A DNA stretch of 64,000 bases from Eubacterium sp. (GCA_024681515.1 JAILAR010000026.1:8799-72798); one strand, 5' to 3'; numbered from the stretch's first letter, positions 1 to 20,316 are shown. Numbers and translations: made by a program. Notes: a model not told the origin generated them from the letters alone.

Positions 1-1
1 A

Positions 2-3392: not shown

Positions 3393-3417
3393 TATTCAGC
3401 AAGGTGCTTCTTTTCTA

Positions 3418-3461: not shown

Positions 3462-3480
3462 ATATTTTCGAGGTGATGAA

Positions 3481-4146: not shown

Positions 4147-4151
4147 TCAGA

Positions 4152-4916
4152 ATGATATTTCATACATTTGGTGATGCGTCTAAGAAACCTGTGCTCCTGA
4201 TTCACGGTATGCTTAATCCATGGCAGTTATGGGAAGAAGCAGCAGAGCATTTTTCGAAGGAATACTATGTTGTCGTTCCGGAGCTGGATGCCCATACGGA
4301 GGAAGAAACAAGCACTTTTGTATCCGTGGATGATGAGGCAAAGGCGATTCGTGAATATGTTATCCGCAAGTTTGGAGGAAAACTCTTCATGATCTGCGGC
4401 CTTTCCATGGGTGGGCGGATCGCTGCGACGCTTGCAGGTCTTCCGGCTATTTCCACCGAGCATCTGGTGTTGGATGGTGCTCCGCTGAAAGCTATGCCGA
4501 AATTTCTGATCCGATTCATGACCAATAGTTATATCAAAATTATTAAGAAATCAAAGGCCAGAGATCCGAAGACGCTGGCCAGTTGCAGAAGAGATTTCCT
4601 CCCTGAAAGGTATATCGATGATTTTCTGAAGATCGCAGACCATATCGAGGATGCATCCATACGAAATATCCTGAGCAGTGTGTTCAGTGCTTTCGATTAC
4701 AAAACCTATGATCCAAACAGCAGGATCCTTTTCATGCATGGTACAAAAGGAAATGAGTCTGTGTCCGGAAAGGCAGCACTTAAGATGAAGGAAGTGAATC
4801 CGCAGACAGAGATCCGTGTATATGATGGGTATGCCCATGCGCAGCTTATGAGTTTTGAGCAGTCCAAATGGATCCGGGAGGTGCAGGATTTTTTAAATAA
4901 GGGAGGATTCACTTAA
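4152..4916 (+). CDS. alpha/beta hydrolase
   Basis: PVLLIHGMLNP (oxyanion region) and nucleophile elbow GLSMGG. ATG 4152 lies 9 nt after GGGAGG and the gene overlaps the tetR stop. Confidence 0.8.
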   Translation: MIFHTFGDASKKPVLLIHGMLNPWQLWEEAAEHFSKEYYVVVPELDAHTEEETSTFVSVDDEAKAIREYVIRKFGGKLFMICGLSMGGRIAATLAGLPAISTEHLVLDGAPLKAMPKFLIRFMTNSYIKIIKKSKARDPKTLASCRRDFLPERYIDDFLKIADHIEDASIRNILSSVFSAFDYKTYDPNSRILFMHGTKGNESVSGKAALKMKEVNPQTEIRVYDGYAHAQLMSFEQSKWIREVQDFLNKGGFT

Positions 4917-4941
4917 CGTAAACATATTATGGAGATAAATT

Positions 4942-4969
4942 CGGTGGGGTGTGTCCACCGGATTTTTTT
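4942..4969 (+). terminator. rho-independent terminator
   Basis: CGGTGG-ggtgtgt-CCACCG followed by gaTTTTTTT. Confidence 0.7.
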
Positions 4970-4993
4970 GTCTTGAATTTTCAAGTTTTTTTG

Positions 4994-5041
4994 TTGACAG
5001 GCTAATAACTGTTAGCCATAATAAAGCTAATAAACATTAGC
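4994..5041 (+). promoter_or_regulatory. consensus-like promoter with two 16-bp palindromic operators
   Basis: TTGACA (4994-4999), 17-nt spacer, CATAAT (5017-5022). The spacer itself is the palindrome GCTAATAACTGTTAGC (5001-5016). A second copy, GCTAATAAACATTAGC, sits at 5026-5041. Confidence 0.6.
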
Positions 5042-5054
5042 GTGAAAAGGGGGA

Positions 5055-5246
5055 GTGCATTCGGCTATGAACAAGGTGACAGGTGGGTTGCTTTTCATAC
5101 TTCCGCTGATATTATCAATAATTCCGATCATATACACGGGAATCACAATATGTTCTGTGGCGACATTTGCAGCTATTCAAGAAGGGCATTTCATAAGGAC
5201 AGGAAAGGGGATGGAAACAGTCATCCCTGTGGGATCCGGGGGATAA
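5055..5246 (+). pseudogene. C-terminal remnant of a CDP-alcohol phosphatidyltransferase-like membrane protein
   Basis: Only 63 aa. NKVTGGLLFILPLIL...AAIQEGHFIR resembles the last TM segments of this family from memory. It lies directly behind the promoter with no N-terminal part. Confidence 0.35.
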
Positions 5247-5252
5247 AGTACA

Positions 5253-5480
5253 ATGGATAGAGTAAGCGGCAGACTGACAGTGTTTTTTGAAGACCCATTC
5301 TGGGTGGGCATTTTCGAGAGGACTTGCTCACGTCTATGGATTGAGCGGATGGTCTATGGTAGAATAAGGCCATGGGCTGGAATCGACAATTTGGAAGTGA
5401 TGGCGCTCGAGTCGCAATTTGTATTTCTGTGGGAATCAGTTTGGGGACAGGGGTTGGTATATTATGGAAATAGAGTATAG
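5253..5480 (+). pseudogene. degenerate DUF2992 (YjdF-like) remnant
   Basis: RLTVFFEDPFWVGIFER matches the conserved DUF2992 N-terminus. The rest diverges and overlaps the next GNAT gene. Confidence 0.4.
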
Positions 5481-5919
5481 ACAAGCGGTTATAGAAGACG
5501 CTGAGTTATTGGTAAATATCTATAATGCTTCATTTTATGACGATTATGTGCGATATGGTTCGTGTCCTGGATATGGACAAACAAAAGAAATGATGGAAGA
5601 GTCAATCAGCAAATATCTGAAACACATCATACTATGCGATAATGAACCTGTTGGTTGTGTATCGTGCATTAAACTGGAAAATGGATTGTATGAGGTCGGT
5701 TGTTTGTGCGTTATACCTGAGTATCAAGGCAAAGGAATTGGGACACAGGCAATTCGATTTGTAAAGACATTTTATGAAGATTGGGAGAGGCTCACTTTAG
5801 TAACACCGATAGACAAGAAAGAAAATGTGAAGTTTTATACTGAAAAATGTGGTTTTCGCGTAGAAGCTACCGAAAGAGACGGCAATGTGGATCTTTTTCG
5901 GTTTGTTGCGGAAAGATAA
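5464..5919 (+). CDS. GNAT family N-acetyltransferase
   Basis: MEIEYRQAVIEDAELL start and the motif VIPEYQGKGIGTQAIRFV. Confidence 0.85.
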   Translation: MEIEYRQAVIEDAELLVNIYNASFYDDYVRYGSCPGYGQTKEMMEESISKYLKHIILCDNEPVGCVSCIKLENGLYEVGCLCVIPEYQGKGIGTQAIRFVKTFYEDWERLTLVTPIDKKENVKFYTEKCGFRVEATERDGNVDLFRFVAER

Positions 5920-6043
5920 TGGTGAAATGTATTTGGAATAAAGGAGAAGAGACCGCTTCTGGTTACGGGCGATAAAGTACTTACAGGATTTAAGGAAGAG
6001 GACTGGAGGAAAGCGTTACGAACCTTTACGCATGACTCATAAA

Positions 6044-6068
6044 GTGTACCAATATGGAACGTTCTTTT
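6044..6068 (+). promoter_or_regulatory. conserved upstream motif, copy A (no -10 box downstream)
   Basis: GTGTACCAATATGGAACGTTCTTTT. See copies at 11122, 13504 and 14956. Confidence 0.5.
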
Positions 6069-6109
6069 ACTTTGATGTTTCCGGCAGAGATCAGGGAAGG
6101 AAGCGTAAG

Positions 6110-6412
6110 ATGAATATATATGTGGATTATGACGATTGTCTTTGTGAGACTGCTCGGGCATTTACCGTGATAGCAGAGAGGCTCTTTGGTAAGACGGTTC
6201 CTTATGAGACGGTTCGTTTTTTTAATCTTCAGGATTCCTTTGAGCTTACAGATGAAGAATATGAACTTCTGATGCTCGAAGGCCATCGCCCTGAAGTACT
6301 GCTTTCTTATGAAGAAACTCCGGGTGCTTCCAGGGTATTAAATGAATGGATTGACCTGGGGCAATTACATGTCACGGAATGCGTAAATAACATCTTGTTC
6401 GTAAAGAGATAG
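6110..6412 (+). pseudogene. HAD-superfamily 5'(3')-nucleotidase-like protein, 3'-truncated
   Basis: The MNIYVDYDDCLCE start carries a DxD-type motif, after GGGAAGGAAG. The ORF ends after ~100 aa, where the family is usually about 180 aa. No other frame continues it. Confidence 0.45.
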
Positions 6413-6428
6413 TGGGGGATACAGAAAC

Positions 6429-6872
6429 GTGATAAGAAAAGCAGAACCAAAGGATTCATCCAGGATTGCCGAGATCCTGGTGTTTACAAAAAGAATGAAG
6501 TACAGAACGATCTTTCATAACGATGAATACTCTTTTAACGAGTTGCAGGTAGTTAAGGTTGCCGATGAATTCAAGGATCCGGAGCTCCTCGATAAAGTGT
6601 GGGTATACGATGATGGCATTGTTAAGGGAATGCTCCATCTGGATGGAAAGGAGATCTCAGAATTATATGTAGATTACTTCTTTTGGAAAGAGGGCATCGG
6701 ATCTAAGCTGGTAGAATTTGCAAAAGAAAAGTTTAATGTTAAGTTCGTATGGACTCTGGAGAAGAACGAAGACGCTATTCGTTTTTACGAGGAGCATGGT
6801 TTTATGCTTAACGGGAAAAGACAATTAGAAGAAGGTACACCTGAATATATCGTGATGTTAGAGCAAGATTGA
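6429..6872 (+). CDS. GNAT family N-acetyltransferase
   Basis: GTG start. MIRKAEPKDSSRIAEI, WKEGIGSKLVEFA, YEEHGF. Confidence 0.8.
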   Translation: MIRKAEPKDSSRIAEILVFTKRMKYRTIFHNDEYSFNELQVVKVADEFKDPELLDKVWVYDDGIVKGMLHLDGKEISELYVDYFFWKEGIGSKLVEFAKEKFNVKFVWTLEKNEDAIRFYEEHGFMLNGKRQLEEGTPEYIVMLEQD

Positions 6873-6975
6873 AACTATGAAAATGAGTGGAACATTATAT
6901 TCCGAAATGACTGACTAAGAAAAATCGGAATTTGTGTTGATACTACAAAGTGAGCAGAAAGGAGTGCGAGCGTGG

Positions 6976-7362
6976 ATGAAAATAAAACGGCTTGTTACGC
7001 TGTCACTGATGGCGGTTATGAGTATGTGCATCTGTACTTCCTGTGTGAAACATGCAGAAGTGGATGGAAGTGAGTTCGAAGACAATGCTGAGCTGACAAC
7101 GGAGATCGTAGGTGCGGAAGTATCGGTTGACGGATCTCATGGAAGTATCACACTAAATATCCCGGAAACATGGAATTGGGAAACAACTAATAACGGTGGA
7201 AAGCTTCAGACCGGAACAATCGGGAGTTACGGGATCATATTAAAACCAAATGAAACTAAGCAAGGGCAGATTGAAGTGTTTTATACGAACGCTTTCGGCC
7301 TTTGCGGGACAGGCCTTTTTAGTAACAAGACAACGCTGGCCGATAATCCTGTATGGGTCTAA
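6976..7362 (+). CDS. putative secreted protein or lipoprotein
   Basis: MKIKRLVTLSLMAVMSMCICTSC is a signal peptide with a Cys-rich end. No recognisable domain. Confidence 0.55.
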   Translation: MKIKRLVTLSLMAVMSMCICTSCVKHAEVDGSEFEDNAELTTEIVGAEVSVDGSHGSITLNIPETWNWETTNNGGKLQTGTIGSYGIILKPNETKQGQIEVFYTNAFGLCGTGLFSNKTTLADNPVWV

Positions 7363-7591
7363 GACGGAAAAATATATGAGGAACACGAGATGGAGGAGCC
7401 TATGTTTAGGCCATCGGGTTTTTCGGAGGCTTTTCTGTTGACACCTCACCAGGGGAACGACCGAATACGATTGTATGGAGCGTAACTGTTTGATATAATT
7501 GTATCGTTCATCGGCGCATTACCCGGAACGGAATCCGCCGGTAATCCGGAAACGGGAAACATTGATCAAAGTGACAGGGAGAAGGAACGCC

Positions 7592-8131
7592 ATGCAGGAT
7601 AAGGGGGATTTTTTCCGGGATGCGGAGGATCAGGAGAAGGCGTGGATCGCTGCGAATGAAGCGATCCTTTATAAAAGGCATTGTAAAAGCTTTATCATGC
7701 TTATTATCCTGTTCGCATTTTGTCTGACGATGGGAATCCTCGGTTTATTCTTTCCCATCGGTCTGGGCCGAATCTTTTGTATAGTTATGATCCCAATCAG
7801 CATCTTCCTGGTGGTCATTGCAGCTATCGGTATATGGACGACGAAACGTCAGCTTGTGAAGGTCAGGAACGGTGACTACGGTGTTCAGAATGTAACTATT
7901 ACAGATGTTCATAACGAGGTTCATGGACTTAAGTCCGATCAGCATGTTACCTTTACGGCAGAGAACGGTGAAACATATGAAATGAACACACATACCACCG
8001 GAGATGCAGGCCTGATCCGCGGGGGCGCAGGACTACTTGTGATCCTTCGCGGAGAATCCAATATTCTTCTCACATGTAAATATCGTTTTTTTCCGGAATA
8101 CGGAGCAGAAAGCTCGCGAGACGGATTATAG
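7592..8131 (+). CDS. membrane protein (two TM helices), function unknown
   Basis: ATG 7592 follows GGGAGAAGGA. Hydrophobic stretches FIMLIILFAFCLTMGILGLFF and IFCIVMIPISIFLVVIAAIGIW. Confidence 0.6.
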   Translation: MQDKGDFFRDAEDQEKAWIAANEAILYKRHCKSFIMLIILFAFCLTMGILGLFFPIGLGRIFCIVMIPISIFLVVIAAIGIWTTKRQLVKVRNGDYGVQNVTITDVHNEVHGLKSDQHVTFTAENGETYEMNTHTTGDAGLIRGGAGLLVILRGESNILLTCKYRFFPEYGAESSRDGL

Positions 8132-8156
8132 AAACTGATGGACAAAGGATAAAACT

Positions 8157-8918
8157 ATGATAGGTATATATTTTAGCGGTACAGGAAATTCAAAATATGC
8201 AGTGAAGTTATTCTGCCGGGAATATGATAAAGAAGCAAAGGCATACTCAATTGAGGATTCGAGGGTTCTATCCGCTATAACCAATGCGGACCTGATCGTA
8301 TTTGCTTATCCCGTTCAGTTTAGTACGGTTCCTAAAATACTGAGAGATTTTGTTACCGACAACAAAGAACTATGGAGGGGAAAGAAAGTCTTTGTGATTG
8401 CGACCATGGGTCTTTTCAGCGGCGATGGATCCGGTATGCTGGGCCGCATTTTACAAAGCTGTGGTGCAGAAGTGAAAGGCGGACTTCATTTGAAAATGCC
8501 GGACAGTATCGCTGACGAGAAGGCATTGAAAAGACCGTTGGATAAGAACAAAGAACTAATTAAAATAGCTAAACAAAAGATTCGGAAATCCGTAAAGCAA
8601 TTGAAAGAAGGGCATCCAACACAGGAAGGAATCGGTTTTTTGTATAGAATGGCCGGTTTCTTCGGGCAGAGATTATACTTCGGACATAAGACAAAGGAAT
8701 ACTCTTCAAAACTTAAAATCGATAATGAAAAATGTATCGGATGCGGAAAATGTGAGAAGCTATGTCCCATGAGAAATATAACCATAGTTGAGAATAATGC
8801 GGTTTCAGGTGACCGGTGTACCATGTGTTATCGGTGTATCAACAAATGTCCCAGGCAGGCAATGACTCTTCTTGGGAAAAGCGTTATTGAACAATGTGAG
8901 GTTGAAAAATACTTGTAG
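8157..8918 (+). CDS. EFR1-family ferredoxin (flavodoxin-like domain plus 4Fe-4S dicluster domain)
   Basis: The N-terminus IGIYFSGTGNSKY is flavodoxin-like. Cluster motifs: CIGCGKCEKLCP and CTMCYRCINKCP. Confidence 0.8.
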   Translation: MIGIYFSGTGNSKYAVKLFCREYDKEAKAYSIEDSRVLSAITNADLIVFAYPVQFSTVPKILRDFVTDNKELWRGKKVFVIATMGLFSGDGSGMLGRILQSCGAEVKGGLHLKMPDSIADEKALKRPLDKNKELIKIAKQKIRKSVKQLKEGHPTQEGIGFLYRMAGFFGQRLYFGHKTKEYSSKLKIDNEKCIGCGKCEKLCPMRNITIVENNAVSGDRCTMCYRCINKCPRQAMTLLGKSVIEQCEVEKYL

Positions 8919-8929
8919 GGAGTAATCGT

Positions 8930-9526
8930 TTGAGAATAGTAGTTATCAGGCATGTTGAAGTGGATTTTTGCTGGAGTAAGAAGTGTTCGTCAGACAGATT
9001 TGATTCAGAATGCAGCGAATATGACAAGGCTCCCATTAAAAAAGAAATGTACAAAATTCCGAGGATCAAATATCAGAGAGTATATATCAGCAGGTTATCC
9101 AGAAGCCGTGATACGGCGGAGAAATTGTTTCCTGATGATAAATATACTGAATCCAGACTGATAAGCGAGGTTCCTCTCAGATCGAGTTTTGATACGGAAA
9201 AAAAGATGCCGTTATGGTTCTGGAATGCAACGGGACGATTTCAGTGGTTTATCAACAGCACAAGGCAGATTGAGGGGCGCAGGCAAACAAAAAAACGAGC
9301 AAGACGGTTTGTTACAGTAATCAGTAATGAAAATAAGAATTGTGCTATTGTTACACATGGATTCTTTATGCATACATTATTGCAGGAGTTGAAAAAGGCA
9401 GGGTTCAGGATTAATAATTATTCGTTTAAATATAAGAATGGGGAAGCTATTATAGCGGAGAAGCGGAAGACAGATAAAATAACGAGGAGAATTCACTGTG
9501 AAGGAAAAAAACATTACATCCTATGA
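8930..9526 (+). CDS. histidine phosphatase family protein
   Basis: TTG start after GGGAG. RH motif VVIRHVE and distal His motif VTHGFFM. Confidence 0.7.
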   Translation: MRIVVIRHVEVDFCWSKKCSSDRFDSECSEYDKAPIKKEMYKIPRIKYQRVYISRLSRSRDTAEKLFPDDKYTESRLISEVPLRSSFDTEKKMPLWFWNATGRFQWFINSTRQIEGRRQTKKRARRFVTVISNENKNCAIVTHGFFMHTLLQELKKAGFRINNYSFKYKNGEAIIAEKRKTDKITRRIHCEGKKHYIL

Positions 9527-9920
9527 AAGCGTGTTTATGCGGATCAGCGGAATGCGGCTTACACAGGAATATGAGATTATGCCGAAAGATTCTGGCACTG
9601 AGATTTCAGATTATTGGATGCGATGCGTAAGTGGTGGCGGAATGGAAAGAGAGCTGCAGCGGAGAGCTTTCTGTCCGGACAGTCAGATGCTGGAAATACT
9701 GAATCAGTGTAACATTCTGAAATGGGACGGCTTTCATGGGAAGCATCCTCGCGGAGTTTTGGATGGAGAAATGTTTTCCTTTCGGGCTATCGTCAATGGC
9801 GGAGAAATCATTCAGGCAGATGGATCGGCGAACTTCCCCAAGAACTTCAGGGAGTTCCGAAGGGCTGTAGACCAGATGTTATCAGAAGCGGATAATAAAA
9901 CAGTCATCCATCGGAAGTAG
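9498..9920 (+). CDS. hypothetical protein
   Basis: GTG 9498 lies 6 nt after GAGGAGAA. 140 aa with no motif I recognise. Confidence 0.5.
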   Translation: MKEKNITSYESVFMRISGMRLTQEYEIMPKDSGTEISDYWMRCVSGGGMERELQRRAFCPDSQMLEILNQCNILKWDGFHGKHPRGVLDGEMFSFRAIVNGGEIIQADGSANFPKNFREFRRAVDQMLSEADNKTVIHRK

Positions 9921-9929
9921 ATTGGATTA

Positions 9930-9978
9930 TTCTCTCGACGGGCCCCAATGCCATGTCGGGAGAATTTTTGTTTTTTTC
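9930..9978 (+). terminator. rho-independent terminator
   Basis: 10-bp stem TTCTCTCGAC / GTCGGGAGAA (one G-U pair) followed by a long T-run. Confidence 0.75.
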
Positions 9979-10071
9979 CGATTTGTGATGAGAAGACGCC
10001 AAAATTTTATAGGCTGCTGAGTTACGCACGATCCATATGTCCTTTGGGAAATCCCATATACTTTTGATGAG

Positions 10072-11084
10072 GTGCGTGTCAGAGACTGGATTGAACGGAA
10101 CAGGAACCGTTACCGGGAAACAGGATATGGATTATGGGCCGTCTGTCTCAAGAAAACCGGTGAAATGATAGGTGACTCAGGATTGACGATTCAGAATATC
10201 AACGGAGAATTATTGCCGGAAATCGGCTATCATATTCGCCGTGACTGCCAACGGAAGGGTTATGCCGGGGAAGCCGCAAGGGCAGTTCGGAACTGGGCTT
10301 TTCAGAATACGGATTATCCTGCTTTGTATTCCTACTGCAAATACACAAACGAGGCTTCGATCCGGACGGCAGAATCAATAGGTATGCATTTCGATAGAGA
10401 GTATCCGGATGAGGTTAACGGAATCACACATGTGTCTGTGATTTCAAGGGATGATCTGATTCATAACATGATTATCTGGGCAAAGAACAAACTTGGCAGT
10501 ACAGAATATGCAGGATGGTGCCTTTCGTTTGTTGAGTATGCGCTGGAAATCAGCAACGGGATCGAGATATTTGGCGGAGATTCCGCAAAAGAGTCCTGCG
10601 AACTGTACAGCGATGCGTTGCAAAATGGAATACCGGAAGAAGGTTCTTTTGTATTCTACGATTGTCTGTGTCCCGGCAACGATGGGCTTGTGAACTGGGG
10701 ACATTGTGGTTACTTCTGATCGGTGTGGGACACGAACGCAATACTTACCTTCATTCGGTGGATGAAAGACTCGGTATACCGGACCGTCTGAACCCGGATC
10801 CATTTGTAATAACCATAACGGATCAGGAAGGAAATACTCTTAAGTCTCCGCCTTTTCATACGCATTTCACGGCTGCGGCAGATCAGTGTGTGTCGGAGTA
10901 TTATTCGAATTACAAGGAAGCGTTTGAATATACAGGTGCGGTAAGTTATTCAAAGCTCGGAGATGCACTTGTATATGTTTGTGATGCAAGGCGCATGACT
11001 GATGCGCTCAAACTTATCTGGCAGAGAACGGACCACGATCTTTGTATAAAGCAAGAAGACATTGCGCACGAATACTATAGTTAA
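10072..11084 (+). pseudogene. GNAT (RimJ/RimL-like) fused to an NlpC/P60- or CHAP-like Cys/His domain, disrupted by frameshifts
   Basis: The GNAT core runs 10072 to about 10450 (GLWAVCLKKTGEMIGDSGL, QRKGYAGEAARAV). Its N-terminus lies in another frame upstream (DEKTPKFYRLLS, stop at 10018). A Cys motif YAGWCLSFVEYAL and His motif NWGHCG are followed by a stop at 10717. Frame 0 then continues with LLIGVGHERNTYLHSVD, which resembles the family pattern GxGxxxxIHS. Confidence 0.5.
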
Positions 11085-11121
11085 AATACAAAAATTATGT
11101 TTTTTCTGATTGGAGCAAGTA

Positions 11122-11165
11122 GTGTGTCAATATGGAACGTTCTATTTTTAAATTTATGATATAAT
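11122..11165 (+). promoter_or_regulatory. conserved upstream motif, copy B, with extended -10 box
   Basis: GTGTGTCAATATGGAACGTTCT, then TGaTATAAT (TATAAT at 11160-11165) 21 nt after GGAAC. Confidence 0.6.
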
Positions 11166-11172
11166 GCAAAAG

Positions 11173-11817
11173 ATGGAAAAACAGCGTTTAATGCATGAAA
11201 ATAACCATGGAGTTGCCGCGGGTCTTTTCTCGGATAGGGGAGCGATAACAGTGGGATCATTATTACAATCAACACGAAATACAAGAAATTTGCCTATCGG
11301 GGAATTTCGGTATATCCGAAGCGATTTTCCCGGGAAACTTACTGACGCAGAAATTGTGTGGCTGCGGGAACATGGCATTACAGCGATTATAGACCTCAGG
11401 GATGAAAGTGAATACAAAGAGCATCCCTGCAGGCTTGAGGATGAAGGCGGATTCATATATTTTCATATGCCTGTAACGGGCGGCGGTGGCGTTCCGGAGT
11501 CGCCGGATGCGGTCGCTGCATCCTATCTTGCCATGCTTGACGGACAGATGGATCGAATCGTTGATACCATATTGAATGCAAAGAGTAATGTGCTCTACTT
11601 CTGTCACGCAGGGAAGGACAGGACGGGAGTAGTGTCTGCGGTTATTCTGAAGAGATTGGGAGTTGATGATCAGACGATCATAGATGACTATATGAAAACA
11701 AAGGATAATCTGATGGATGTACTTACACAATATGTGATGGAACATCCGGAAGTAGATATCAATACCATTATTCCAAGGGAAGAGAACATAATAAAGGTTT
11801 TGGAGAATCTGACATAA
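11173..11817 (+). CDS. protein-tyrosine phosphatase (Y_phosphatase3-like)
   Basis: CX5R P-loop FCHAGKDRTG. NTRNLPIGEFRYIRSD and IIDLRDESE are typical. The track start 11164 overlaps the -10 box, so ATG 11173 (possibly leaderless) or 11191 is more likely. Confidence 0.8.
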   Translation: MEKQRLMHENNHGVAAGLFSDRGAITVGSLLQSTRNTRNLPIGEFRYIRSDFPGKLTDAEIVWLREHGITAIIDLRDESEYKEHPCRLEDEGGFIYFHMPVTGGGGVPESPDAVAASYLAMLDGQMDRIVDTILNAKSNVLYFCHAGKDRTGVVSAVILKRLGVDDQTIIDDYMKTKDNLMDVLTQYVMEHPEVDINTIIPREENIIKVLENLT

Positions 11818-11844
11818 TAGAGAAGAAGAAAGAATTTGATTCAA

Positions 11845-11982
11845 CTTGTGAACCGGGCTTTTCATCTCATCCTGCTGGATATCAATCTGCCGGATGCGGA
11901 GGGATTCGATGTCTGCAGGGAATTGTGGAGAGTGTCCGAGGTGCCGGTGATCTTCGCCAGCGCAAGGACCAGCGAAATATAA
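11845..11982 (+). pseudogene. fragment of a response-regulator receiver domain
   Basis: HLILLDINLPDAEGFDVCRELWRVSEVPVIFASARTSEI* is the central part of an OmpR/PhoB-type receiver. It has no N-terminal Asp pocket, no output domain, and stops TAA TAG just upstream. Confidence 0.6.
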
Positions 11983-11989
11983 AGAAAAA

Positions 11990-12455
11990 GGTAGGGCGGT
12001 CCGTGAAGGGCCGCCCGACCTTTGGATTCATGATCATTATCTGTGTCTTGCTGCATTCCATATCCGAGAGCCGGGAGGTATCGGCACGGTATTCCTTTCC
12101 GTCTGCGGTTTTTCCTGCCATGATATTGTCGTAGGCAGAAAGAAAGGCATTCAGCGACTTCTCCATTTTTTTGAACTCCGGGGTGTTCCATGCCTTGAAC
12201 AGTGTGTGATCTGCCATGGAATGCCATTGCCTGCGCATGCTGTCGACGTAGGACGAGACTCTCCGCATGTCATCCATATGGGCCTTCCCTGTGGGATCGG
12301 TGGGACGTTCTGCAACGGTGGCAGGATCCAGGATCCGGTACTTGTCCTCTGAATAGGAAGCATTGGGATATTTACGCTCTTCAGTTTTTTTGCGGCCTCC
12401 GGATCGGTGTCAGCTTCTCTCTGCAGTTCGCTGTATCCGATATCAAAAAAAGTGC
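11990..12455 (-). pseudogene. frameshifted internal fragment of an unknown larger gene
   Basis: Two - strand frames read like coding sequence: ...DIGYSELQREADTDPEAAKK, then after an A7 run ...EERKYPNASYSEDKYRILDPATVAERPTDPTGKAHMDDMRRVSSYVDSMRRQWHSMADHTLFKAWNTPEFKKMEKSLNAFLSAYDNIMAGK. There is no start codon or SD sequence, and the fragment abuts the receiver fragment. Confidence 0.35.
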
Positions 12456-12573
12456 AACACGGCACTATTGTCAATCTTATTGTCAGTTCACAGACGGGAT
12501 GTGGGATGGTATAATCATAGAGTACTATGAGGTTTGGGAAAAAGGACGGAAGAACGAGGGAGATGCATACCAT

Positions 12574-13443
12574 ATGAATGAAGTAAATTATTTCATCAAA
12601 AGAATTGAAAAAGCGGATATTCCGGATTGCGTCAGTGTGATACGACGCAGTTTCCGGACCGTAGCGGATGAATTTGGCTTTACTGAAGAAAATGCGCCCG
12701 CATTTACAGCATTTGCCACGACTGAAGAAAAGGCAGAGAAGTGGATGACCGAGCAGGGCCGGCCAATGTACGGATGCTTTGAGAATGATCGACTGGTCGG
12801 ATACTATAATCTGCTTTCCGGAGAGGCTGGATATGAACTGGGCAGTCTCTCGGTTCTTCCGGAATACAGGCATGAGGGAATAGGACGAAATCTTCTTACG
12901 GATGCATTGATCCGTGCTGCAGCAGCGAATGCCGATAAAATGGAGCTTAGTATCGTGGAGGAAAATGCCACCCTTCGGAAATGGTACGAGGATATGGGTT
13001 TCACTCACACCGGAACCAGGAAGTTTGATTTCTTTCCGTTTACCTGCGGCTATCTGGAAAGAGATTTAAGAGAATCTCCGATCAGAATTGAGAACCTGAT
13101 GCTTAGCAGAGGTCATATCATACTCTGGTTGGTAAAGAAAATGTTGGAGGAGAAAACGGAAGTATCCTTCCCGAGATTTGTCTATATTTCGGGAGAACTG
13201 GCTTTAAACGGTAAATTTTATGCGGATATGGATCGTGAACGGTATTGGGTCGAAAAACCGGCTGAGTCGGTGTATTTTCCGGAAGATCTTTCTATTTTGG
13301 GCACGGTCACGGATGAAGAGATACTTCAGATCATCATTGCAGCGAATGAAAGAAATAAATCGGATCAGAAAAATGTACAGATCATTTTTGATCCGATCAG
13401 TTCCGTTCGTGTGATTCGGATTTACGAACAGAACTCACAATAA
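12574..13443 (+). CDS. GNAT N-acetyltransferase with an extra ~125-aa C-terminal domain
   Basis: ATG 12574 lies downstream of an extended -10 box (TGgTATAAT at ~12508-12516). GNAT motif LPEYRHEGIGRNLLTDAL...YEDMGF. The C-terminal region has no recognisable motif. The track ORF start at 12202 is an artefactual extension. Confidence 0.75.
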   Translation: MNEVNYFIKRIEKADIPDCVSVIRRSFRTVADEFGFTEENAPAFTAFATTEEKAEKWMTEQGRPMYGCFENDRLVGYYNLLSGEAGYELGSLSVLPEYRHEGIGRNLLTDALIRAAAANADKMELSIVEENATLRKWYEDMGFTHTGTRKFDFFPFTCGYLERDLRESPIRIENLMLSRGHIILWLVKKMLEEKTEVSFPRFVYISGELALNGKFYADMDRERYWVEKPAESVYFPEDLSILGTVTDEEILQIIIAANERNKSDQKNVQIIFDPISSVRVIRIYEQNSQ

Positions 13444-13503
13444 TAAAGAGACTTGTTGCCGGATAATTGTGAAACACCGGAAACTGTGATGGTTCTTACT
13501 GAT

Positions 13504-13548
13504 GTGTGCCAATATGGAACATTTTTTCTCCTTGATGTATGCTATAAT
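13504..13548 (+). promoter_or_regulatory. conserved upstream motif, copy C, with extended -10 box
   Basis: GTGTGCCAATATGGAACATTTTTT, then TGcTATAAT (TATAAT at 13543-13548) 22 nt after GGAAC. Confidence 0.6.
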
Positions 13549-13611
13549 ACAAGTGATTTCAATAAATCTAATATAACATCAGATTGAAGATTTTTCCGGG
13601 AGGTTATCTAT

Positions 13612-14946
13612 ATGAACATTGATCATGTGGCATTTAGTCAGGTGGCAACAACGCTTGCAAAGCATTTTGACAGCCTGTATTACGTGGATATTGAATCTGA
13701 CAGTTTTATAGAGTTTTTCCATTCACAGATGCTGGATGAATTAAACCTTCCTGAACAGGGAGCGGACTTTTTTGCTTTTCTTAGGGAACAGGCCGGAAGG
13801 ATCGTACATCCGGACGACATCGACTATGTGCTGCGGCTGATCGATAAGGAATCAATCATAAAGAAAATAACAGAGAATAATTCCAGTCTGATGGTATGCC
13901 GGTTCGTGCTGGGGGGAAAGATCATTCATATCTGCCATATCAGTATTCTGTGTGAGGATAATAAGCATATTTTGGGCTGTATCAAGAATATTGAGGCTGA
14001 GTATCGTACGCAGGAGGAGCAGGAAATGCTCCTGAAATCCGCTGAGCGCCTGGCCAGACTTGATGAACTGACGGGAGCCAAGAATAAAAATGCTTATACG
14101 GAACATGTTCGGCTGATCGATGATATGATCGGATCCGGTGTGAAGATAGCGCCCTTCGCCGTTGTCATGTGTGATATCAATGATCTGAAATTGATCAATG
14201 ATTCCAGAGGACACAGCTTCGGTGATGAATCCATACAGAAAGCAGGTCGTTTGATCTGCAATATTTACGAAAAAAGTGCGGTATACAGGGTCGGAGGCGA
14301 TGAATTTGTCGCTATTCTTACAGATGACGATTTCGAAAAGCGTGATGATCTGCTGAGCCTGCTCTGTATAGAATCCAGAACAAATGGCAAATGGCGTTCC
14401 GGCCCGGTGGTTGCCTGCGGTATGTCGGTTTATGATCCCGAAGAGGACAGTTGCTTTAACGATGTATTTGAACGTGCAGATGCCGATATGTACAGGAATA
14501 AAAAGGAGCTGAAGAACGAAGCCGCTGCAGAGAAAATTAAAAAAGCGGCAACGATCGATCAGGATATTCCGGATGAGCGAAAGAGGCAGCTGGATAGTTT
14601 CTTTGGTGCTTTATACACCACGGCCGGGGACGGATATGTCTTTCTGACAGACCTGAAATACAGCTTCTCCCGGTGGTCACTTACCCTGGTCAATGATTTC
14701 GGTCTTCCCTCTGAATATATGTACCATGTGGAAAAAACCTGGGAAAAATGCATCCATCCGGAGGATCTGAATCGATATCAGGAAGTGGTGGAAGCCGTTT
14801 TAACAGGAAATTCCGTACTGTACTCCATCAGTTATCGAGCACAAAAGGCGGATGGAACCTATGTGTTCCTTAAACCGAGAGGTTTCGTAATATGCGACAG
14901 CAACGGAGAACCTGAGTATTTCGGTGGGATCATCATCCCTCAGTAA
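13612..14946 (+). CDS. diguanylate cyclase with N-terminal sensor region and C-terminal PAS-like domain
   Basis: SD GGGAGG. LDELTGAKNKNAY, INDSRGHSFGD, RVGGDEFVAIL. The C-terminal IHPEDLNRYQEVV...YRAQKADGTYVFLKPRG is PAS-like. Confidence 0.9.
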   Translation: MNIDHVAFSQVATTLAKHFDSLYYVDIESDSFIEFFHSQMLDELNLPEQGADFFAFLREQAGRIVHPDDIDYVLRLIDKESIIKKITENNSSLMVCRFVLGGKIIHICHISILCEDNKHILGCIKNIEAEYRTQEEQEMLLKSAERLARLDELTGAKNKNAYTEHVRLIDDMIGSGVKIAPFAVVMCDINDLKLINDSRGHSFGDESIQKAGRLICNIYEKSAVYRVGGDEFVAILTDDDFEKRDDLLSLLCIESRTNGKWRSGPVVACGMSVYDPEEDSCFNDVFERADADMYRNKKELKNEAAAEKIKKAATIDQDIPDERKRQLDSFFGALYTTAGDGYVFLTDLKYSFSRWSLTLVNDFGLPSEYMYHVEKTWEKCIHPEDLNRYQEVVEAVLTGNSVLYSISYRAQKADGTYVFLKPRGFVICDSNGEPEYFGGIIIPQ

Positions 14947-14955
14947 ACTATCTTT

Positions 14956-15000
14956 GTGTGCCAAGATGGAACGTTCTTTTGTCTTGGTTTATGATTTAAT
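14956..15000 (+). promoter_or_regulatory. conserved upstream motif, copy D, with extended -10 box
   Basis: GTGTGCCAAGATGGAACGTTCTTTT, then TGaTTTAAT (14995-15000) 22 nt after GGAAC. Confidence 0.6.
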
Positions 15001-15054: not shown

Positions 15055-18000
15055 ATGGATAACGAAAAAACTGAAAACAAAAATAAATGGAAGAAATTAT
15101 ATGACGAGGACGGAAACCTCGCTTATGAAGGCTTTGCAAATTACAACACTCCCTGGGGAGCCGGTAAGGTGTATTTTCCGGATGGAACCGTGTACCAGGA
15201 GGGAATCTTTGGAAACAAGGGGCTTCTCTGTGGGAGGATGGCGTTTATGATAAGAATGATCAAAGGAAGACGCTTTAGATTGAGAAGCAGGCTGGCAGCA
15301 ACTGCACTCTGCTTCGGATTGGCCCTAAGTCAGCTGCCGGCGTATGCCGCACCGGATGAACAGGAAACGAAAAAATCGGCCGATCTGTCCGGTCAGCAAT
15401 ATATGGCGAGCACCGAGAATGGTATCGCCGATGAGAGTTGGAATACCTATGATACTGAGGGGCATCCGACACCCAGGGTGGACACCAACGGTACAGTGGT
15501 GGCGGTCTTTGACTGCGGCGTGGACTATGAGCATGAAGACCTAAGGAACGTCATGTGGAATGAAGGTCTAAATTATAAATCATTGGTGGACATGGGCGGC
15601 GGCAGCTATGGGATCTGTGTGAGTCCCATGAATTCCATGAGTGAAACATATGACAGCTCAGATCCCATGGATGATGAGAAGGAAGGACACGGAACCCACG
15701 TGGCCGGTATCATCGCGGCTGAATGGAATAACATCGGTATCAGTGGGATCACAAGCGGTGCGAAGATCATGGCTGTTAAGGTGTCAAATGACCGCGGTAT
15801 CACCTCCACTGCGGAACTCATCAACGGATATCGTTATGTGATCGAGGCGAAGAAGGCCGGCGTTAATGTGGTGGCAGTGAACATGTCTCTCGGTTTCCAG
15901 AGTGACGGAAATGCGTTAAATGAAATCATCACAGAGGCCGGGGAACTGGGTATCGTTACCTGCGTCGCAGCCAGCAATTCCATGAGAAATCTGGATCCGG
16001 AAAATGGGATCGCTGCGGCCCTTGCAGACAATCCGTATGTATTGGTCGTCGGTGCATCCAATGAAGAGGGCAATCCCTGGACGGATGAGGGCGACAGCGG
16101 CTCAAATTACGGACGTCGTACCGTGGATATTTTTGCACCCGGAGCAGGTATCATTTCCACATTCCCTGAACGTCTCGGTGAGCTGGACTCCACCAGTGAT
16201 ATCGTTGAAGAAGGAGGAAAGCGCTATTCCTTTGATTACAGCACGGATGAATATGATGTGACTGACGGAAAGGACAGTTCCGTCTTCGGCTATACAGGAG
16301 AGGAAACCGTACTTTCCAAGGGAACGGAAGGACTGACCTTATCCACGCCGAATGGCGGTGAGAGCGGTTCGTTTACGCTCGCTGTCCCTGTGCTTGAGAC
16401 CCTGAAAACCTGCAAGGGCGGCGTGATCACTGCTAAGGCTCCCGTTGGTACAACGGTGACTCTGACATTTAACTGTGATGGCAGAGACTATGGATCTGTG
16501 GACCGGGTTGCTGCCGGTGACGGCAGGATGGAACTCCCCTTTGTGATTCCGGATGATGACGGCATGGATCTTTCCGCGGCCATGCTTGAATTTGAAGTGT
16601 TTCCTCCTAACGGATCGGAAGAGGAAACCTCCGAGATTAAGGAGATCACTGTTCAAAAATCCGTATTCCATACCGGTAAAACCAAGTATCATACGGAATC
16701 CGGAACCTCCATGGCCACGCCCGTGATGGCGGGTGTTGCGGCCATGCTTTCCAGAGCATTTAAAAATGACACGGCAGACAAGATCGTTGCAAGAATGCAG
16801 GGCAGCGTAAAGCGTGTGGATTCACTGAAGGATAAATGTATTGCAGAGGGTATCTTTTCTCTGGACAGGGCACTGGATGAAAAGACCTTCCCCGTGATCA
16901 ACGGTCTGACCAGACAGGGAGATCAGGCAGTCATAACCGGTTACTTCTTCGGCAGTCTGATGCCAACCGTAAAAATCGACGGAAAGGAAGTGACATCCAT
17001 AAGCGGTAACAGTACAACGCTGACCGTGACGATCCCTGAGGGGGTAAAGGATGGTGAAGTGCTTGTAGAGGTTACCTCCGAGAAAGGTACCGGTCACCGG
17101 TTGATGCAGCTGGGAACGGCGGATAATCTCTATCCCCGACTGTCGCTGCCTGACGAGAGTGAAGAGGGCTTCTACGCAGCTGATATCATGTCCATGACAG
17201 CCATCGGAGATTCTCTGTATGTGGTTTTGGGAGCCGGAGATACACGGATCTACAGCTACAATACCGTGACAAAGACGTGGAAGAAGGAATATCAGGGTGA
17301 GTACCCTGCAACGGAAGGCGCCTGCGAGGTGAACGGAAAGCTTCTGTTCCTTACCTCCGATGTCATTAAGGGGCAGGATCACATCGGCTGCTTTGATCCC
17401 GCGTCCGAAAATGTTACATATAAACTTTATCAGGAAGATTTCTTTATCACACATGCGGCCCTTGTAAATGCCGGAACCGGTGTGTATATCGTCGGAGGCC
17501 GGGAGGGCGTCTATGGAAATATCAAAAACCAGGGAACAAACAGAAATATCATTTATGTGAATACGTCGGATCTTTCAGATATCAGAACCGAGACGATCGA
17601 GGATGCCAGAGTAAATGCTGAGAATCCGATCATTGCATCCGACGGACAGGGGACCATTTATATTTATGGATCCCAAAGCGGGGACAGTGAGATCTCCTTC
17701 ACAAAACCCATAACCATTAAGGCCACCGGTAATACCGCGACGGTATCGGAGGTCGCGGCAAAGGATATCTATCCGAAGACGAACCGGAATCAGATGGCAG
17801 TCGGTACCGCTGCGGTCACGGCAGCCGGAAATATCATGACGACGGGTCCTGTTGTGACGGACGATACAGGGAAGGTGATCGAGGATACCTATGTTGTTGG
17901 TCCCGGAAAGAAGAATATTCAATCTACAGGAAAAATCGTGAGCCTGACACCGGTATATCATCCGGTTTCCGCGGTGATCGGTGATACCTATTATGTGCTT

Positions 18001-20316
18001 GGAACCACGGCTTCCGAGAAAGACCATTTCGTCTTCGCCGGTGCGGATGCCGCGACTCCCTCTGCATTTGAAGAACTTCCGTTATATAAACTCACGACGG
18101 ATGAGCCGGAGACGGTTGTGGTCCGGACCTTTGATGCACATCCGGATGTGGTATACATGGATGTTACGGAATTCTTTGATCGTTTCTATGAGAGAAAGTT
18201 ATCCGTAGAGAAAAAAGAAGGAACCTATACACTTTCCGAAGAAAACATCGGAGAGAGAGCGGAGATCGATGTTGATAAGGATACCCTTACCACCGGAAAC
18301 TACCACGGCCTGTTTCAGCCTCTGATCAAAGGGAGGGAGGATGATTCCCTGCGCTTCGTGGAGCGGGCGGCATTCCTTCAGCATACAGAGAATACCGCAA
18401 CGAAACAGGAAGAGGATACCGTGCTGGATTTCGGAGCATACGGCATTGATCTGATCGAGGCAGACGGCAATATCTATATGCCTCTTTCGGTTCTTGGTAT
18501 GCTGTTCAATACGGGAGAGGATGCGTATGTGATCACAAACGGGGAATCCGTTTATTTGAACTATACATCCATGGATACGAATGATACAGATCAGTCCGAG
18601 AAGGATGAACATCGTCTTGACGGACTTGCAGAGGGAAACCGCCCGGAGGAACTGATTCGGGAATCTTATGCGGAGCTTTGCTTCGAACTGGATCTTCTGT
18701 ACGGACTGGAAGGCACCCACAGTGAATTTATACAGAGTCTTCAGAAGGATGGTCTGGATAAGACACTTGATACATTTGATCCGGCGCTGAAGACCATGCT
18801 GCTGTCCGAAAACAGTGCGGATTATGCACTGGGTATGAATCGGCTTCTGGACTTCTGGCTGAATGATTCCGGCCATACACAGTATGATCTGATGCAGTTC
18901 ATGACGCATGACGAACTGTATGGTCAGATCGAGGAGAAGTCGGAGGAGGCTTCGGATCTTCCGGATTCCTTCATTTACTGGTATAAGGACCGTGATAAGG
19001 CAGGCTTGCGAGATGCAAGAAGATTTGCCGCTGACGGCGATGATATTTATTCTGATTATTATGCCGTAAAGGGTGATACCGCATTTGTAAAACTTGAAGA
19101 ATTTGATGTGGATTATGGCGGATGGGTAAAGTATTATCAGAAGAAGGGCGAAATGCCTGACGATGCATTTGCAAGGATACACAACGCACTGGAAAAGGCA
19201 AATTCGGATAAGAAGGTTGAGAATTTCGTCATCGATCTCACATTCAACGGGGGCGGTGATACGGAAGCTCTGCTTGGGATCATCGGACTCGTTACAGGCA
19301 AGGCGCACGTGAAGATACGTTCCGAGGTCACCGGTCAGACCTATGATTCGATGCCTAAGGTCGACAGAAATCTGGACGGTGTATTCGACGCAAAGGATGA
19401 CGCTGTGGATTACAGCCGTTTGAATATGGCGGTTCTCTGCAGTGGGTATACTTTCTCCTGTGCAAATACCTTCACCGCTGTTATGCAGGATGAAGGTATC
19501 GCCGTTATCGGAACCCGGTCCGGCGGCGGAACCTGCTGTGTAACGGATATGGCTACGGAAGAGGCCGTGATCTATCGAATTTCAGGTCCGATCAAGCTGG
19601 TCAATGCAAAAGGGGAGTCCATCGATGAAGGCATCAAGGCCGACATCGATCTCAGTGCGAAGATTGACGAAGATACCTATGATTATTCCGCATTCTATGA
19701 TGATGTGAAGGTGTCCGATGCACTGTTTAAGTTCTACGGCAAGGTAAAGAAGAGGAATGAATGGGTGGATGGCCGCTGGTACGACAGGAACGGCCGGCAA
19801 AACTACAAGCCTGTTGGTTCCTGGCATGAGAATAAGAAGGGCAAATGGTACGGGGATACTTCCGGCTGGTATGCGCAGAATCAGTGGCAGAAGATCGACG
19901 GAAAATGGTACTACTTCAATCAGGACGGCTATATGGAGATGGATGCATACCGCTATGGCTATTATCTGACGGAGAGCGGAGCCTGGGACGGCAAGTCAAA
20001 GGTTGCCGGCTGGAAAAAGAATAACACCGGCTGGTGGTTTGAAATCGGGGAGAAGACTTATCTCAAAGACGGTTGGAAGATGATCAACGGCAGATGGTAT
20101 TATTTCAGGAAGAGCGGCTACGCTGCCCAAAATGAATTTGTAAAAGGTTGGTGGATCGGATCAAACTGTGCCTGGGGAGATCCGGTGAAATACAGCTGGC
20201 ATAAGACCGCGCAAGGCTGGTGGTACGGCGCATCCGGCGAATGGTATGCAAAAAATAAAACCTATGTCATCGACGGCAAGTCATATTCCTTTGATAAACT
20301 TGGATATATGAAGTAG
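15055..20316 (+). CDS. multidomain surface protease: S8 subtilisin-like domain, central region of unknown (possibly beta-rich) fold, S41-like peptidase domain and C-terminal cell-wall-binding repeats
   Basis: S8 triad motifs: VAVFDCGVD, GHGTHVAGI, SGTSMATP (~16699). S41-like motifs: IDLTFNGGGD and GYTFSCANTF. The last ~185 aa are Trp/Tyr/Gly repeats (GWYAQNQWQKIDGKWYYFNQDGYM, GWKMINGRWYYFRKSGYA). The signal peptide MIRMIKGRRFRLRSRLAATALCFGLALSQLPAYA begins only at in-frame ATG 15247, which has its own GGGAGGA SD sequence. Confidence 0.9.
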   Translation: MDNEKTENKNKWKKLYDEDGNLAYEGFANYNTPWGAGKVYFPDGTVYQEGIFGNKGLLCGRMAFMIRMIKGRRFRLRSRLAATALCFGLALSQLPAYAAPDEQETKKSADLSGQQYMASTENGIADESWNTYDTEGHPTPRVDTNGTVVAVFDCGVDYEHEDLRNVMWNEGLNYKSLVDMGGGSYGICVSPMNSMSETYDSSDPMDDEKEGHGTHVAGIIAAEWNNIGISGITSGAKIMAVKVSNDRGITSTAELINGYRYVIEAKKAGVNVVAVNMSLGFQSDGNALNEIITEAGELGIVTCVAASNSMRNLDPENGIAAALADNPYVLVVGASNEEGNPWTDEGDSGSNYGRRTVDIFAPGAGIISTFPERLGELDSTSDIVEEGGKRYSFDYSTDEYDVTDGKDSSVFGYTGEETVLSKGTEGLTLSTPNGGESGSFTLAVPVLETLKTCKGGVITAKAPVGTTVTLTFNCDGRDYGSVDRVAAGDGRMELPFVIPDDDGMDLSAAMLEFEVFPPNGSEEETSEIKEITVQKSVFHTGKTKYHTESGTSMATPVMAGVAAMLSRAFKNDTADKIVARMQGSVKRVDSLKDKCIAEGIFSLDRALDEKTFPVINGLTRQGDQAVITGYFFGSLMPTVKIDGKEVTSISGNSTTLTVTIPEGVKDGEVLVEVTSEKGTGHRLMQLGTADNLYPRLSLPDESEEGFYAADIMSMTAIGDSLYVVLGAGDTRIYSYNTVTKTWKKEYQGEYPATEGACEVNGKLLFLTSDVIKGQDHIGCFDPASENVTYKLYQEDFFITHAALVNAGTGVYIVGGREGVYGNIKNQGTNRNIIYVNTSDLSDIRTETIEDARVNAENPIIASDGQGTIYIYGSQSGDSEISFTKPITIKATGNTATVSEVAAKDIYPKTNRNQMAVGTAAVTAAGNIMTTGPVVTDDTGKVIEDTYVVGPGKKNIQSTGKIVSLTPVYHPVSAVIGDTYYVLGTTASEKDHFVFAGADAATPSAFEELPLYKLTTDEPETVVVRTFDAHPDVVYMDVTEFFDRFYERKLSVEKKEGTYTLSEENIGERAEIDVDKDTLTTGNYHGLFQPLIKGREDDSLRFVERAAFLQHTENTATKQEEDTVLDFGAYGIDLIEADGNIYMPLSVLGMLFNTGEDAYVITNGESVYLNYTSMDTNDTDQSEKDEHRLDGLAEGNRPEELIRESYAELCFELDLLYGLEGTHSEFIQSLQKDGLDKTLDTFDPALKTMLLSENSADYALGMNRLLDFWLNDSGHTQYDLMQFMTHDELYGQIEEKSEEASDLPDSFIYWYKDRDKAGLRDARRFAADGDDIYSDYYAVKGDTAFVKLEEFDVDYGGWVKYYQKKGEMPDDAFARIHNALEKANSDKKVENFVIDLTFNGGGDTEALLGIIGLVTGKAHVKIRSEVTGQTYDSMPKVDRNLDGVFDAKDDAVDYSRLNMAVLCSGYTFSCANTFTAVMQDEGIAVIGTRSGGGTCCVTDMATEEAVIYRISGPIKLVNAKGESIDEGIKADIDLSAKIDEDTYDYSAFYDDVKVSDALFKFYGKVKKRNEWVDGRWYDRNGRQNYKPVGSWHENKKGKWYGDTSGWYAQNQWQKIDGKWYYFNQDGYMEMDAYRYGYYLTESGAWDGKSKVAGWKKNNTGWWFEIGEKTYLKDGWKMINGRWYYFRKSGYAAQNEFVKGWWIGSNCAWGDPVKYSWHKTAQGWWYGASGEWYAKNKTYVIDGKSYSFDKLGYMK

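Follow-up and report, generated by a model that had tools for sequence, protein, structure and literature searches.

Class II activators sit near -42, and at promoters that depend on class II activators of the CRP, FNR or PrfA type the binding site is centred at -41.5. CiaR- and PhoP/PhoB-type promoters lack a -35 hexamer, and the site of the regulator replaces it. In the Firmicutes, promoters of the ComR-box, PlcR-box and Rgg type are served by quorum-sensing regulators that combine an XRE-type helix-turn-helix (HTH) with TPR repeats. We analysed a stretch of 64,000 nucleotides from Eubacterium sp. (GCA_024681515.1, JAILAR010000026.1:8799-72798; this whole stretch is referred to as the window, and positions are counted from its first letter) in which a 25-nt motif occurs four times, each time upstream of a gene (Table 1). 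An earlier note on this DNA had proposed that the motif is a regulator-binding site that ties the four genes together. Both the anatomy of the motif and its conservation in other genomes support this proposal, and the motif very probably is the operator of a dimeric regulator. The four neighbouring genes of this rumen-type Lachnospiraceae bacterium thereby appear to be joined by a real, lineage-specific small regulon of an ordinary kind.

All four copies are on the + strand. Matches to the 25-nt consensus were found at 6044, 11122, 13504 and 14956, with one, two, three and one mismatches, respectively, which reproduces the positions given before, and no match occurred by chance in 100 dinucleotide-preserving shuffles of the window. 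A search with the 16-nt core, allowing up to four mismatches, yielded no further credible site in the 64 kb. When the 64 kb were scanned with a 21-nt position weight matrix, the four copies scored 33-36 bits and no site scored between 12 and 33 bits; because such intermediate sites are absent, the site scores in the window are sharply bimodal. Searches by motif pattern of one genome per species and of Joint Genome Institute (JGI) metagenomes recovered the same module in rumen-type Lachnospiraceae, where it lies upstream of non-homologous genes.

The motif is followed by an extended -10 element at three of the four copies. The sequence TRTGnTAnAAT is the canonical sigma-A extended -10, with the -16 region of Gram-positive promoters. 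Direct reading gave TATG.TATAAT after the copies at 11122 (hexamer 11160-11165, 21 nt past GGAAC) and 13504 (hexamer 13543-13548, 22 nt past GGAAC), and TATG.TTTAAT after the copy at 14956 (hexamer 14995-15000, 22 nt past GGAAC), which has no A at hexamer position 2 and is weaker. These three have the TG at -15/-14 and the TAnnnT-type hexamer of a sigma-A extended -10. The copy at 6044 does not, as GGCAGA (6083-6088) stands where the -10 is expected. The earlier description of an extended -10 box 21-22 nt after GGAAC in three copies is confirmed. A scan with the sigma-70 consensus called none of the three promoters because they have no -35 hexamer: a canonical -35/-10 promoter was rejected, since no TTGACA-like hexamer is present 16-18 nt before the -10 and CRTTYT hexamers are found there instead. 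A T-rich tract, TTYTTTY, at about -33 to -27 substitutes for the -35 hexamer. Direct reading and the sigma-70 scan thus agree with the earlier view that the motif occupies the -35 region of extended -10 promoters without a -35, at a near-fixed distance.

The same arrangement is found at the related sites. Of the 15 sites with a -10, 12 have the first base of the hexamer at motif index 40; the hexamer begins at index 39 once, at 41 once and at 42 in the two sites of contig L039. Spacing and helical phase relative to the -10 are thus held within an index range of 39-42, as is expected of a class II activator site, and the TG of the extended -10 is in place at 11 of 15 related sites. Relative to the predicted start, which lies ~7 nt past the hexamer, and with the hexamer at -12 to -7, the site spans -51 to -34 and its dyad is centred at about -42. 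The site also has a fixed polarity: the invariant half-site TGGAAC and the T-tract are always promoter-proximal and the degenerate half is always distal, and every site is co-oriented with its downstream gene.

The perfect palindrome GAACGTTC, which had been noted before, is present in three copies (6044, 11122 and 14956) but is not a conserved element. Motif position 18 is G, A or T over 16 sites, and we rejected GAACGTTC as the functional palindrome. The true symmetry is an imperfect 7-3-7 inverted repeat of 17 bp, TGTKCCA-N3-TGGAACR, with the arms T2G3T4(G/T)5C6C7A8 and T12G13G14A15A16C17R18. Five of the seven arm positions (3/17, 4/16, 6/14, 7/13 and 8/12) are complementary in 15-16 of the 16 promoter-type sites and the dyad is broken solely at position 5 (G), so that the dyad symmetry of an inverted-repeat operator is conserved over the sites. 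The GGDEF-PAS protein of the window has an 84%-identical orthologue at locus L201, and the promoter of this orthologue carries, at the index of the window GGDEF-PAS site, a palindrome that is perfect (10-3-10), GAGTGTTCCA-TTA-TGGAACACTC. The homologous sequence GTATGCTATAAT comes after this palindrome; the stretch GTATGCTATAATTCAAGTG that follows it is homologous to window 13536-13554, and the -10 is again at index 40-45. Because the L201 palindrome is perfect at the same index, the window motif appears to be a variant of GTGTTCCA-N3-TGGAACAC whose distal half is degenerate. Such a degenerate-half dyad reads as the signature of a dimeric DNA-binding protein and not of a sigma factor.

Mean pairwise identity over 13 instances is 0.92 in motif positions 1-20, a value that is partly circular since most instances from outside the window were retrieved by a pattern that fixes most motif positions; without that pattern we obtained just the window copies, L172, L179, L201 and the second L039 site. 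Over the same instances the identity is 0.51 in the ungapped -10 region, 0.43 in the spacer, 0.27 upstream and 0.29 downstream of the promoter. The contrast between inside and outside makes the element a sharply bounded island of conservation.

Compared with the systems described above, the promoters of the window share with the class II promoters a dyad site for a dimer over the -35 position, strict phasing to the -10 and the lack of a usable -35. The motif is odd-centred, 7-3-7 (TGT-N11-ACR), whereas sites of the CRP/FNR/PrfA type are 5-6-5 or 5-4-5. With the ComR/PlcR/Rgg type they share the palindrome, the T-rich tract, the extended -10 without a -35 and a small, lineage-specific, fast-evolving regulon, but the half-site sequence is different and no TPR regulator or small peptide gene was seen beside any site. 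CiaR and PhoP/PhoB promoters likewise keep a regulator site at constant distance from a good -10, where the -35 would be; their sites, however, are direct repeats for winged-helix domains, and the motif is an inverted repeat. Two further known sites are parS, TGTTCCACGTGGAACA / TGTTNCACGTGAAACA, and the NtrC site, TGCACCA-N3-TGGTGCA. The half-site TGTTCCA/TGGAACA is common to parS and the motif, but parS is 7-2-7 with a CG centre. The NtrC site has the same 7-3-7 geometry and inner CCA-N3-TGG. Unlike the motif, neither keeps a fixed distance to a sigma-A -10. By analogy, the motif would act in the manner of a class II activator site or of a ComR/PlcR-type box. It was assigned to no named family, because the bound protein is as yet only a candidate.

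None of the consensus sequences tested (LexA, cre, sigma-54, ECF, Spo0A, SinR, parS, CRP/FNR, TnrA and NtrC) fits all copies. The LexA/Cheo box CGAAC-N4-GTTCG has 3-5 mismatches of 10 at each copy, and GAACGTTC lacks its 4-nt spacer. The CcpA cre site WTGNAANCGNWNNCW has 3-4 mismatches of 10, with the central CG out of register, and the sigma-54 consensus TGGCAC-N5-TTGCW (GG at -24, GC at -12) has 3-4 mismatches on the + strand, with the GC never present. Mismatches number 2-3 of 7 for the Spo0A box TGTCGAA, 7-8 of 15 for the 16-bp 7-2-7 parS with its CG centre, 3-5 of 10 for CRP/FNR and 4-6 of 14 for NtrC. The SinR operator GTTCTYT is exact in two window copies only (6044 and 14956) and in few relatives. 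TnrA/GlnR sites, TGTNA-N7-TNACA, have the same 17-bp geometry, but the motif has other bases than their symmetric A/T at positions 5 and 13 (2-3 mismatches of 8), and the genes downstream of the sites include none of nitrogen metabolism. Searched against Rfam as a riboswitch or other RNA element, the whole window gave no match at the gathering threshold. A literature search on the half-sites returned parS, KstR and unrelated primers only, and no bacterial regulator with such a site.

Among the related genomes, Lachnospiraceae bacterium AC2029 (GCA_000703065.1) carries at least three copies (loci L013, L021 and L179), the third of which, L179, was found independently via a paralogous gene. Other instances are in RUG13730 (L017) and in the metagenome contigs L027/L052, L039, L042, L047 and L025/L036. 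A small VOC/glyoxalase-like protein (126-134 aa, MKITTFNP...) has the site in five loci of three or four genomes (the three AC2029 paralogues, L017 and L027) and is the most persistent regulon member outside the window; VOC homologues of 78-83% identity in other contexts have no site. On contig L039 (1871 nt) two sites, at reverse-complement positions 24 and 1723, flank one membrane SpoIIE/PP2C phosphatase gene. Both have a distance of 24 nt instead of 22 nt to the -10, so the spacing is consistent within the contig. The target at L047 is a choline-binding Peptidase_C39_2 protein and that at L025 a fused amino-acid ABC transporter. Three groups of hits were set aside: a metagenome group (L029/31/34/40/41/43/46) lies within coding sequence of an unrelated low-GC organism; Pseudoalteromonas hits have unbroken flanks common to several species and no -10; and a phage or mobile-element origin was rejected, as the matches listed among at least 119 in viral contigs all lack a -10 at the required spacing and agree with the motif at no more than 20 of its 25 positions.

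Conservation upstream of orthologues, a check suggested in the earlier note, was found for the GGDEF-PAS gene. Besides the 84% orthologue with its perfect palindrome, the 82% orthologue (L172) has the site, ATGTGCCAAGATGGAAC, followed after 22 nt by TAGAAT, and the site recurs before unrelated genes. No site is present at the 86% orthologue (L200), which keeps the TRTG extended -10, nor at another 71% orthologue (L202, P0017) and the 67% orthologues (L176-178). Upstream of the 71% orthologue P0014 (L173-175) the site is split by a hairpin-like insertion of ~38 nt, as TGTGCCAAT[ATGATCCGG...CAGGATC]ATGGAAC, ~160 nt before the gene (gene start 10001 in L173). The insertion has inverted ends and looks like a small hairpin or an element resembling a miniature inverted-repeat transposable element (MITE) that inactivated the site. 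Because the site is perfect, present, split or absent among orthologous promoters, regulon membership appears labile, with sites gained, perfected, split and lost quickly, and a regulon that links cyclic di-GMP (c-di-GMP) signalling, a phosphatase and a protease is only a snapshot of it. Beside the 82% orthologue, L172 10344-11181 contains a MarR/HTH gene and then a gene for a 111-aa stand-alone RNA polymerase alpha C-terminal domain protein (PF03118), the latter being unusual.

Taking the mechanism further, we lean towards a dimeric HTH regulator that binds the motif as a class-II-type activator of sigma-A extended -10 promoters. A dimer of the regulator would bind the 7-3-7 dyad, with its centre ~42 bp upstream of the predicted start, and the bound dimer would help sigma-A RNA polymerase at a promoter that has an extended -10 and lacks a -35. 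As an outcome, one signal would be answered by the four genes of the window and, in relatives, by a varying set of genes for signalling and the cell surface. The class II position of the bound dimer, and activation from it, are what we infer from the sequence anatomy, the dyad symmetry, the fixed phasing and polarity and the cross-genome conservation. Several points weigh against this mechanism. One is the partial circularity of the in-motif conservation mentioned above. In addition, since the spacer is more similar than the background (0.43 vs 0.27), common ancestry of a promoter module that was duplicated may account for part of the constancy in spacing. Finally, the site-less orthologous promoters (L200 and L176-178) also have TRTGnTATAAT and no -35, and because of this the core promoter may work unaided.

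A self-sufficient core is what a repressor would need, and an XRE-, TetR- or MarR-type dimer that binds the same palindrome and occludes the upstream half of constitutive extended -10 promoters is a serious, though less probable, rival explanation. The near-consensus -10 elements would suit it, and long perfect palindromes such as the 10-3-10 of L201 are typical of repressor operators. A repressor, however, needs neither the near-invariant spacing between operator and -10 over non-homologous genes and genomes nor the fixed polarity with the perfect half-site always proximal, and the site at -51 to -34 is clear of the -10 and the start site, where most repressors act.

We regard as improbable that the copies are a promoter cassette, a 'mobile promoter' spread by duplication or recombination and conserved by recent descent with no dedicated regulator. 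The window does have features of this kind, since all four copies lie inside 9 kb of a low-GC, GNAT-rich accessory region, the similarity of the spacers exceeds the background and sites are rapidly gained and lost among orthologous promoters. Duplication would explain the origin of the copies but not why 17-20 nt stay invariant: the edges of conservation are abrupt, the spacer diverged while dyad and -10 did not, the orthologous L201 site moved toward greater dyad symmetry, and the site persists across species before unrelated genes. Least probable is that TGGAAC is the -35 of an alternative sigma factor of the extracytoplasmic function (ECF) type with TATG 17 nt downstream as its -10, for although TGGAAC-N17-TATGnT can be read in most copies and GGAAC resembles the 'AAC' -35 of ECF promoters, no copy has a CGT-type -10 at 16-17 nt, the conserved block of 17-23 bp is dyad-symmetric and extends well beyond a sigma region 4 contact, and the conserved TAnAAT would stay unexplained.

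The most concrete candidate that we infer for the protein acting as the class-II-type activator would be a response regulator of atypical build, in which an XRE-type HTH is N-terminal and the receiver C-terminal and which has a LytS-type (PF06580) kinase as its partner. In Ruminococcaceae/Oscillospiraceae, operons of the HTH_XRE+Response_reg / His_kinase type, which encode a PF06580 histidine kinase and an HTH_XRE + Response_reg protein of 199 aa, are preceded by a conserved perfect palindrome, GTGTTCCA(A/G)AATGGAAC(A/G). Four variants of the response regulator (L001/5/8, L016, L191-199 and L205; 75-78% identical to the L016 reference) represent about three promoter-context groups, as the L205 flank resembles that of L191; the remaining flanks are not conserved. 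The palindromes are in divergent intergenic regions beside secreted or membrane proteins, and only in Ruminococcaceae/Oscillospiraceae was a palindrome found beside the operon of an XRE-receiver regulator itself. The divergent operon at L191 encodes a SpoIIE phosphatase, which shares 49% identity with the motif-driven phosphatase of L039 over 319 residues.

Other observations weigh against this candidate. No XRE-receiver regulator is encoded in the window or in the Lachnospiraceae loci fetched, the Ruminococcaceae palindrome keeps no fixed distance to a -10, and similar palindromes adjoin genes resembling those of sigma-54 activators in Desulfosporosinus and Sedimentibacter. Relatives of the XRE-receiver protein number more than 6000 at E <= 1e-10; no Lachnospiraceae orthologue is among the 120 matches listed, which are all at least 75% identical and of the Ruminococcaceae type. 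The regulators encoded in the window, a MerR/TipAS gene (1154-1888, minus strand) and a TetR gene (3361-4146), do not adjoin a site, and no Crp/Fnr-family gene is linked to the motif. We consider it doubtful that the motif is a target of the large XRE-receiver family, one of whose members would in rumen Lachnospiraceae be the class II activator of a fast-turnover regulon of c-di-GMP, phosphatase and surface-protease genes.

The sites in Desulfosporosinus acididurans (L010 ~5997-6060) and Sedimentibacter (L019 ~620-722) consist of arrays of TGTTCC half-sites plus a full palindrome. Their neighbours were judged sigma-54-dependent-activator-like by eye and not by a Pfam scan, and Sedimentibacter also has an aldehyde ferredoxin oxidoreductase-like open reading frame (ORF). 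These sites may belong to a different regulator with a similar half-site.

No characterised two-component member with N-terminal XRE, C-terminal receiver and PF06580 kinase was found. Among characterised regulators of the general receiver plus XRE-HTH type we came across DigR of Myxococcus xanthus alone; this response regulator has HTH_Xre as its output domain and binds, presumably as a dimer, to a palindrome (PMC3509222). A protease is among the secreted proteins under DigR control, the kinase partnered with DigR binds c-di-GMP, and the DigR site, TAATC-N14-GATTA, occurs at variable promoter positions (PMC3509222). DigR and the candidate both are receiver plus XRE-HTH regulators on a palindrome, but the HTH of DigR is C-terminal (the opposite order), its palindrome is another one and it belongs to another phylum.

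The coordinates of the features are given in Table 1. Pfam searches agreed with the identities proposed earlier for the four downstream genes; an exact look-up of the GGDEF-PAS protein of the window gave no database record. Behind the copy at 6044, which has no -10, the NT5C fragment covers only part of its profile, in line with the earlier view of a decayed promoter before a decayed gene. For the phosphatase, the listed ORF 11164-11817 (217 aa) starts at ATG 11164, inside the -10, and ATG 11173 coincides with the predicted transcription start. Both had been noticed before and are correct, but the leaderless mRNA that had been suggested on this basis finds no support. Most of the closest among 150 representative homologues (187-199 aa) start at residue 30-31 of the 217-aa ORF, where a GTG is found at 11251 with a GGGGAG Shine-Dalgarno sequence (11237-11242) at 8-nt distance. 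The listed ORF is most likely over-extended at its 5' end, with GTG 11251 as the start. Because homologue starts and Shine-Dalgarno sequence both point to this GTG, a 5' untranslated region of ~78 nt is more likely than a leaderless mRNA. As a whole, the earlier reading is partly supported: motif, position and decay of the copy at 6044 stand, and the palindrome, the leaderless mRNA and, except as a snapshot, the proposed regulon do not.

Several features surround the four copies. Window 1-15000 has a low GC content (0.43 vs 0.49 elsewhere) and many GNAT genes, and forms an array of small same-strand genes (GNATs, Pyridox_ox_2, TetR + alpha/beta hydrolase, flavodoxin-like) with gene fragments such as a C-terminal piece of Antibiotic_NAT (10662-11084) and the NT5C piece. 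The gene content of the AC2029 region L179 (JNLK01000001.1 3505579-3525980) is very similar to that of window 1-15000. A terminator-like hairpin at 14960-14988 (GCCAAGA...TCTTGGT plus a T-rich tail) overlaps copy 4 shortly after the GGDEF-PAS stop at 14946; it was seen in this copy only and is probably incidental. On the minus strand at ~11115-11130, TGACACACTACTTGCT matches the sigma-54 consensus with one mismatch. It arises from the TGTGTCA variant of copy 2, occurs in this copy only, is directed into the preceding gene and is probably due to chance. In ORF 12202-13443 (413 aa) the GNAT domain is limited to residues 161-273, and the best sigma-70-like promoter of the region (TTCACA-17-TATAAT with TG, 12487-12515) is internal to the ORF, the true start of which is probably downstream of ~12515. 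Further downstream, in a metagenome-assembled genome of Eubacterium sp. (L176-178) the GGDEF-PAS gene is directly upstream of cmk-ispH/rpsA-rplS; the window has ~26 kb between them. The block 15055-41221 contains the S8/S41 protease gene, a DUF362 gene, an ORF of 3054 aa and other large ORFs, and looks like an inserted accessory block. The N-terminal sequence of the 3054-aa ORF resembles adenylating enzymes of the nonribosomal peptide synthetase type, judged by a look at the sequence and not by a Pfam scan.

Table 1. Motif copies, predicted promoter elements and downstream genes in the window, and palindromes beside XRE-receiver operons at other loci.
Feature	Position	Strand	Remarks
Motif copy 1, GTGTACCAATATGGAACGTTCTTTT	6044..6068	+	dyad 6045-6061
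Truncated NT5C-like 5'-nucleotidase gene	6110..6412	+	100 aa; Pfam, profile positions 2-87 of 180; behind copy 1
Motif copy 2, GTGTGTCAATATGGAACGTTCTATT	11122..11146	+	dyad 11123-11139
Extended -10, TATGATATAAT	11155..11165	+	TRTG -16 element and -10 hexamer; predicted start ~11171-11173
Y_phosphatase3 tyrosine-phosphatase-family gene	11251..11817	+	Pfam; revised start GTG 11251
Motif copy 3, GTGTGCCAATATGGAACATTTTTTC	13504..13528	+	dyad 13505-13521
Extended -10, TATGCTATAAT	13538..13548	+	predicted start ~13555
GGDEF + PAS_3 diguanylate-cyclase-type gene	13612..14946	+	Pfam
Motif copy 4, GTGTGCCAAGATGGAACGTTCTTTT	14956..14980	+	dyad 14957-14973
Extended -10, TATGATTTAAT	14990..15000	+	predicted start ~15007
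Peptidase_S8 + Peptidase_S41 gene	15055..20316	+	1753 aa; choline-binding (cell-wall-binding) repeats; Pfam
Palindrome, L001	321-342
Palindrome, L016	3134-3155
Palindrome, L191	~3896-3913
Palindrome, L205	175-192

The element is a new operator motif and not a new mechanism, useful but not surprising. Regulation in rumen and gut Lachnospiraceae is nearly unmapped, and the motif supplies a sharply defined cis-element with its anatomy and phasing. The targets listed so far are a diguanylate cyclase, phosphatases of the Tyr and PP2C types, proteases and peptidases anchored in the cell wall, and a small VOC protein. The element also illustrates how fast orthologous promoters acquire such a site, perfect it, split it and lose it. 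If the link to the XRE-receiver proteins is true, a large orphan family of response regulators would gain its first operator.

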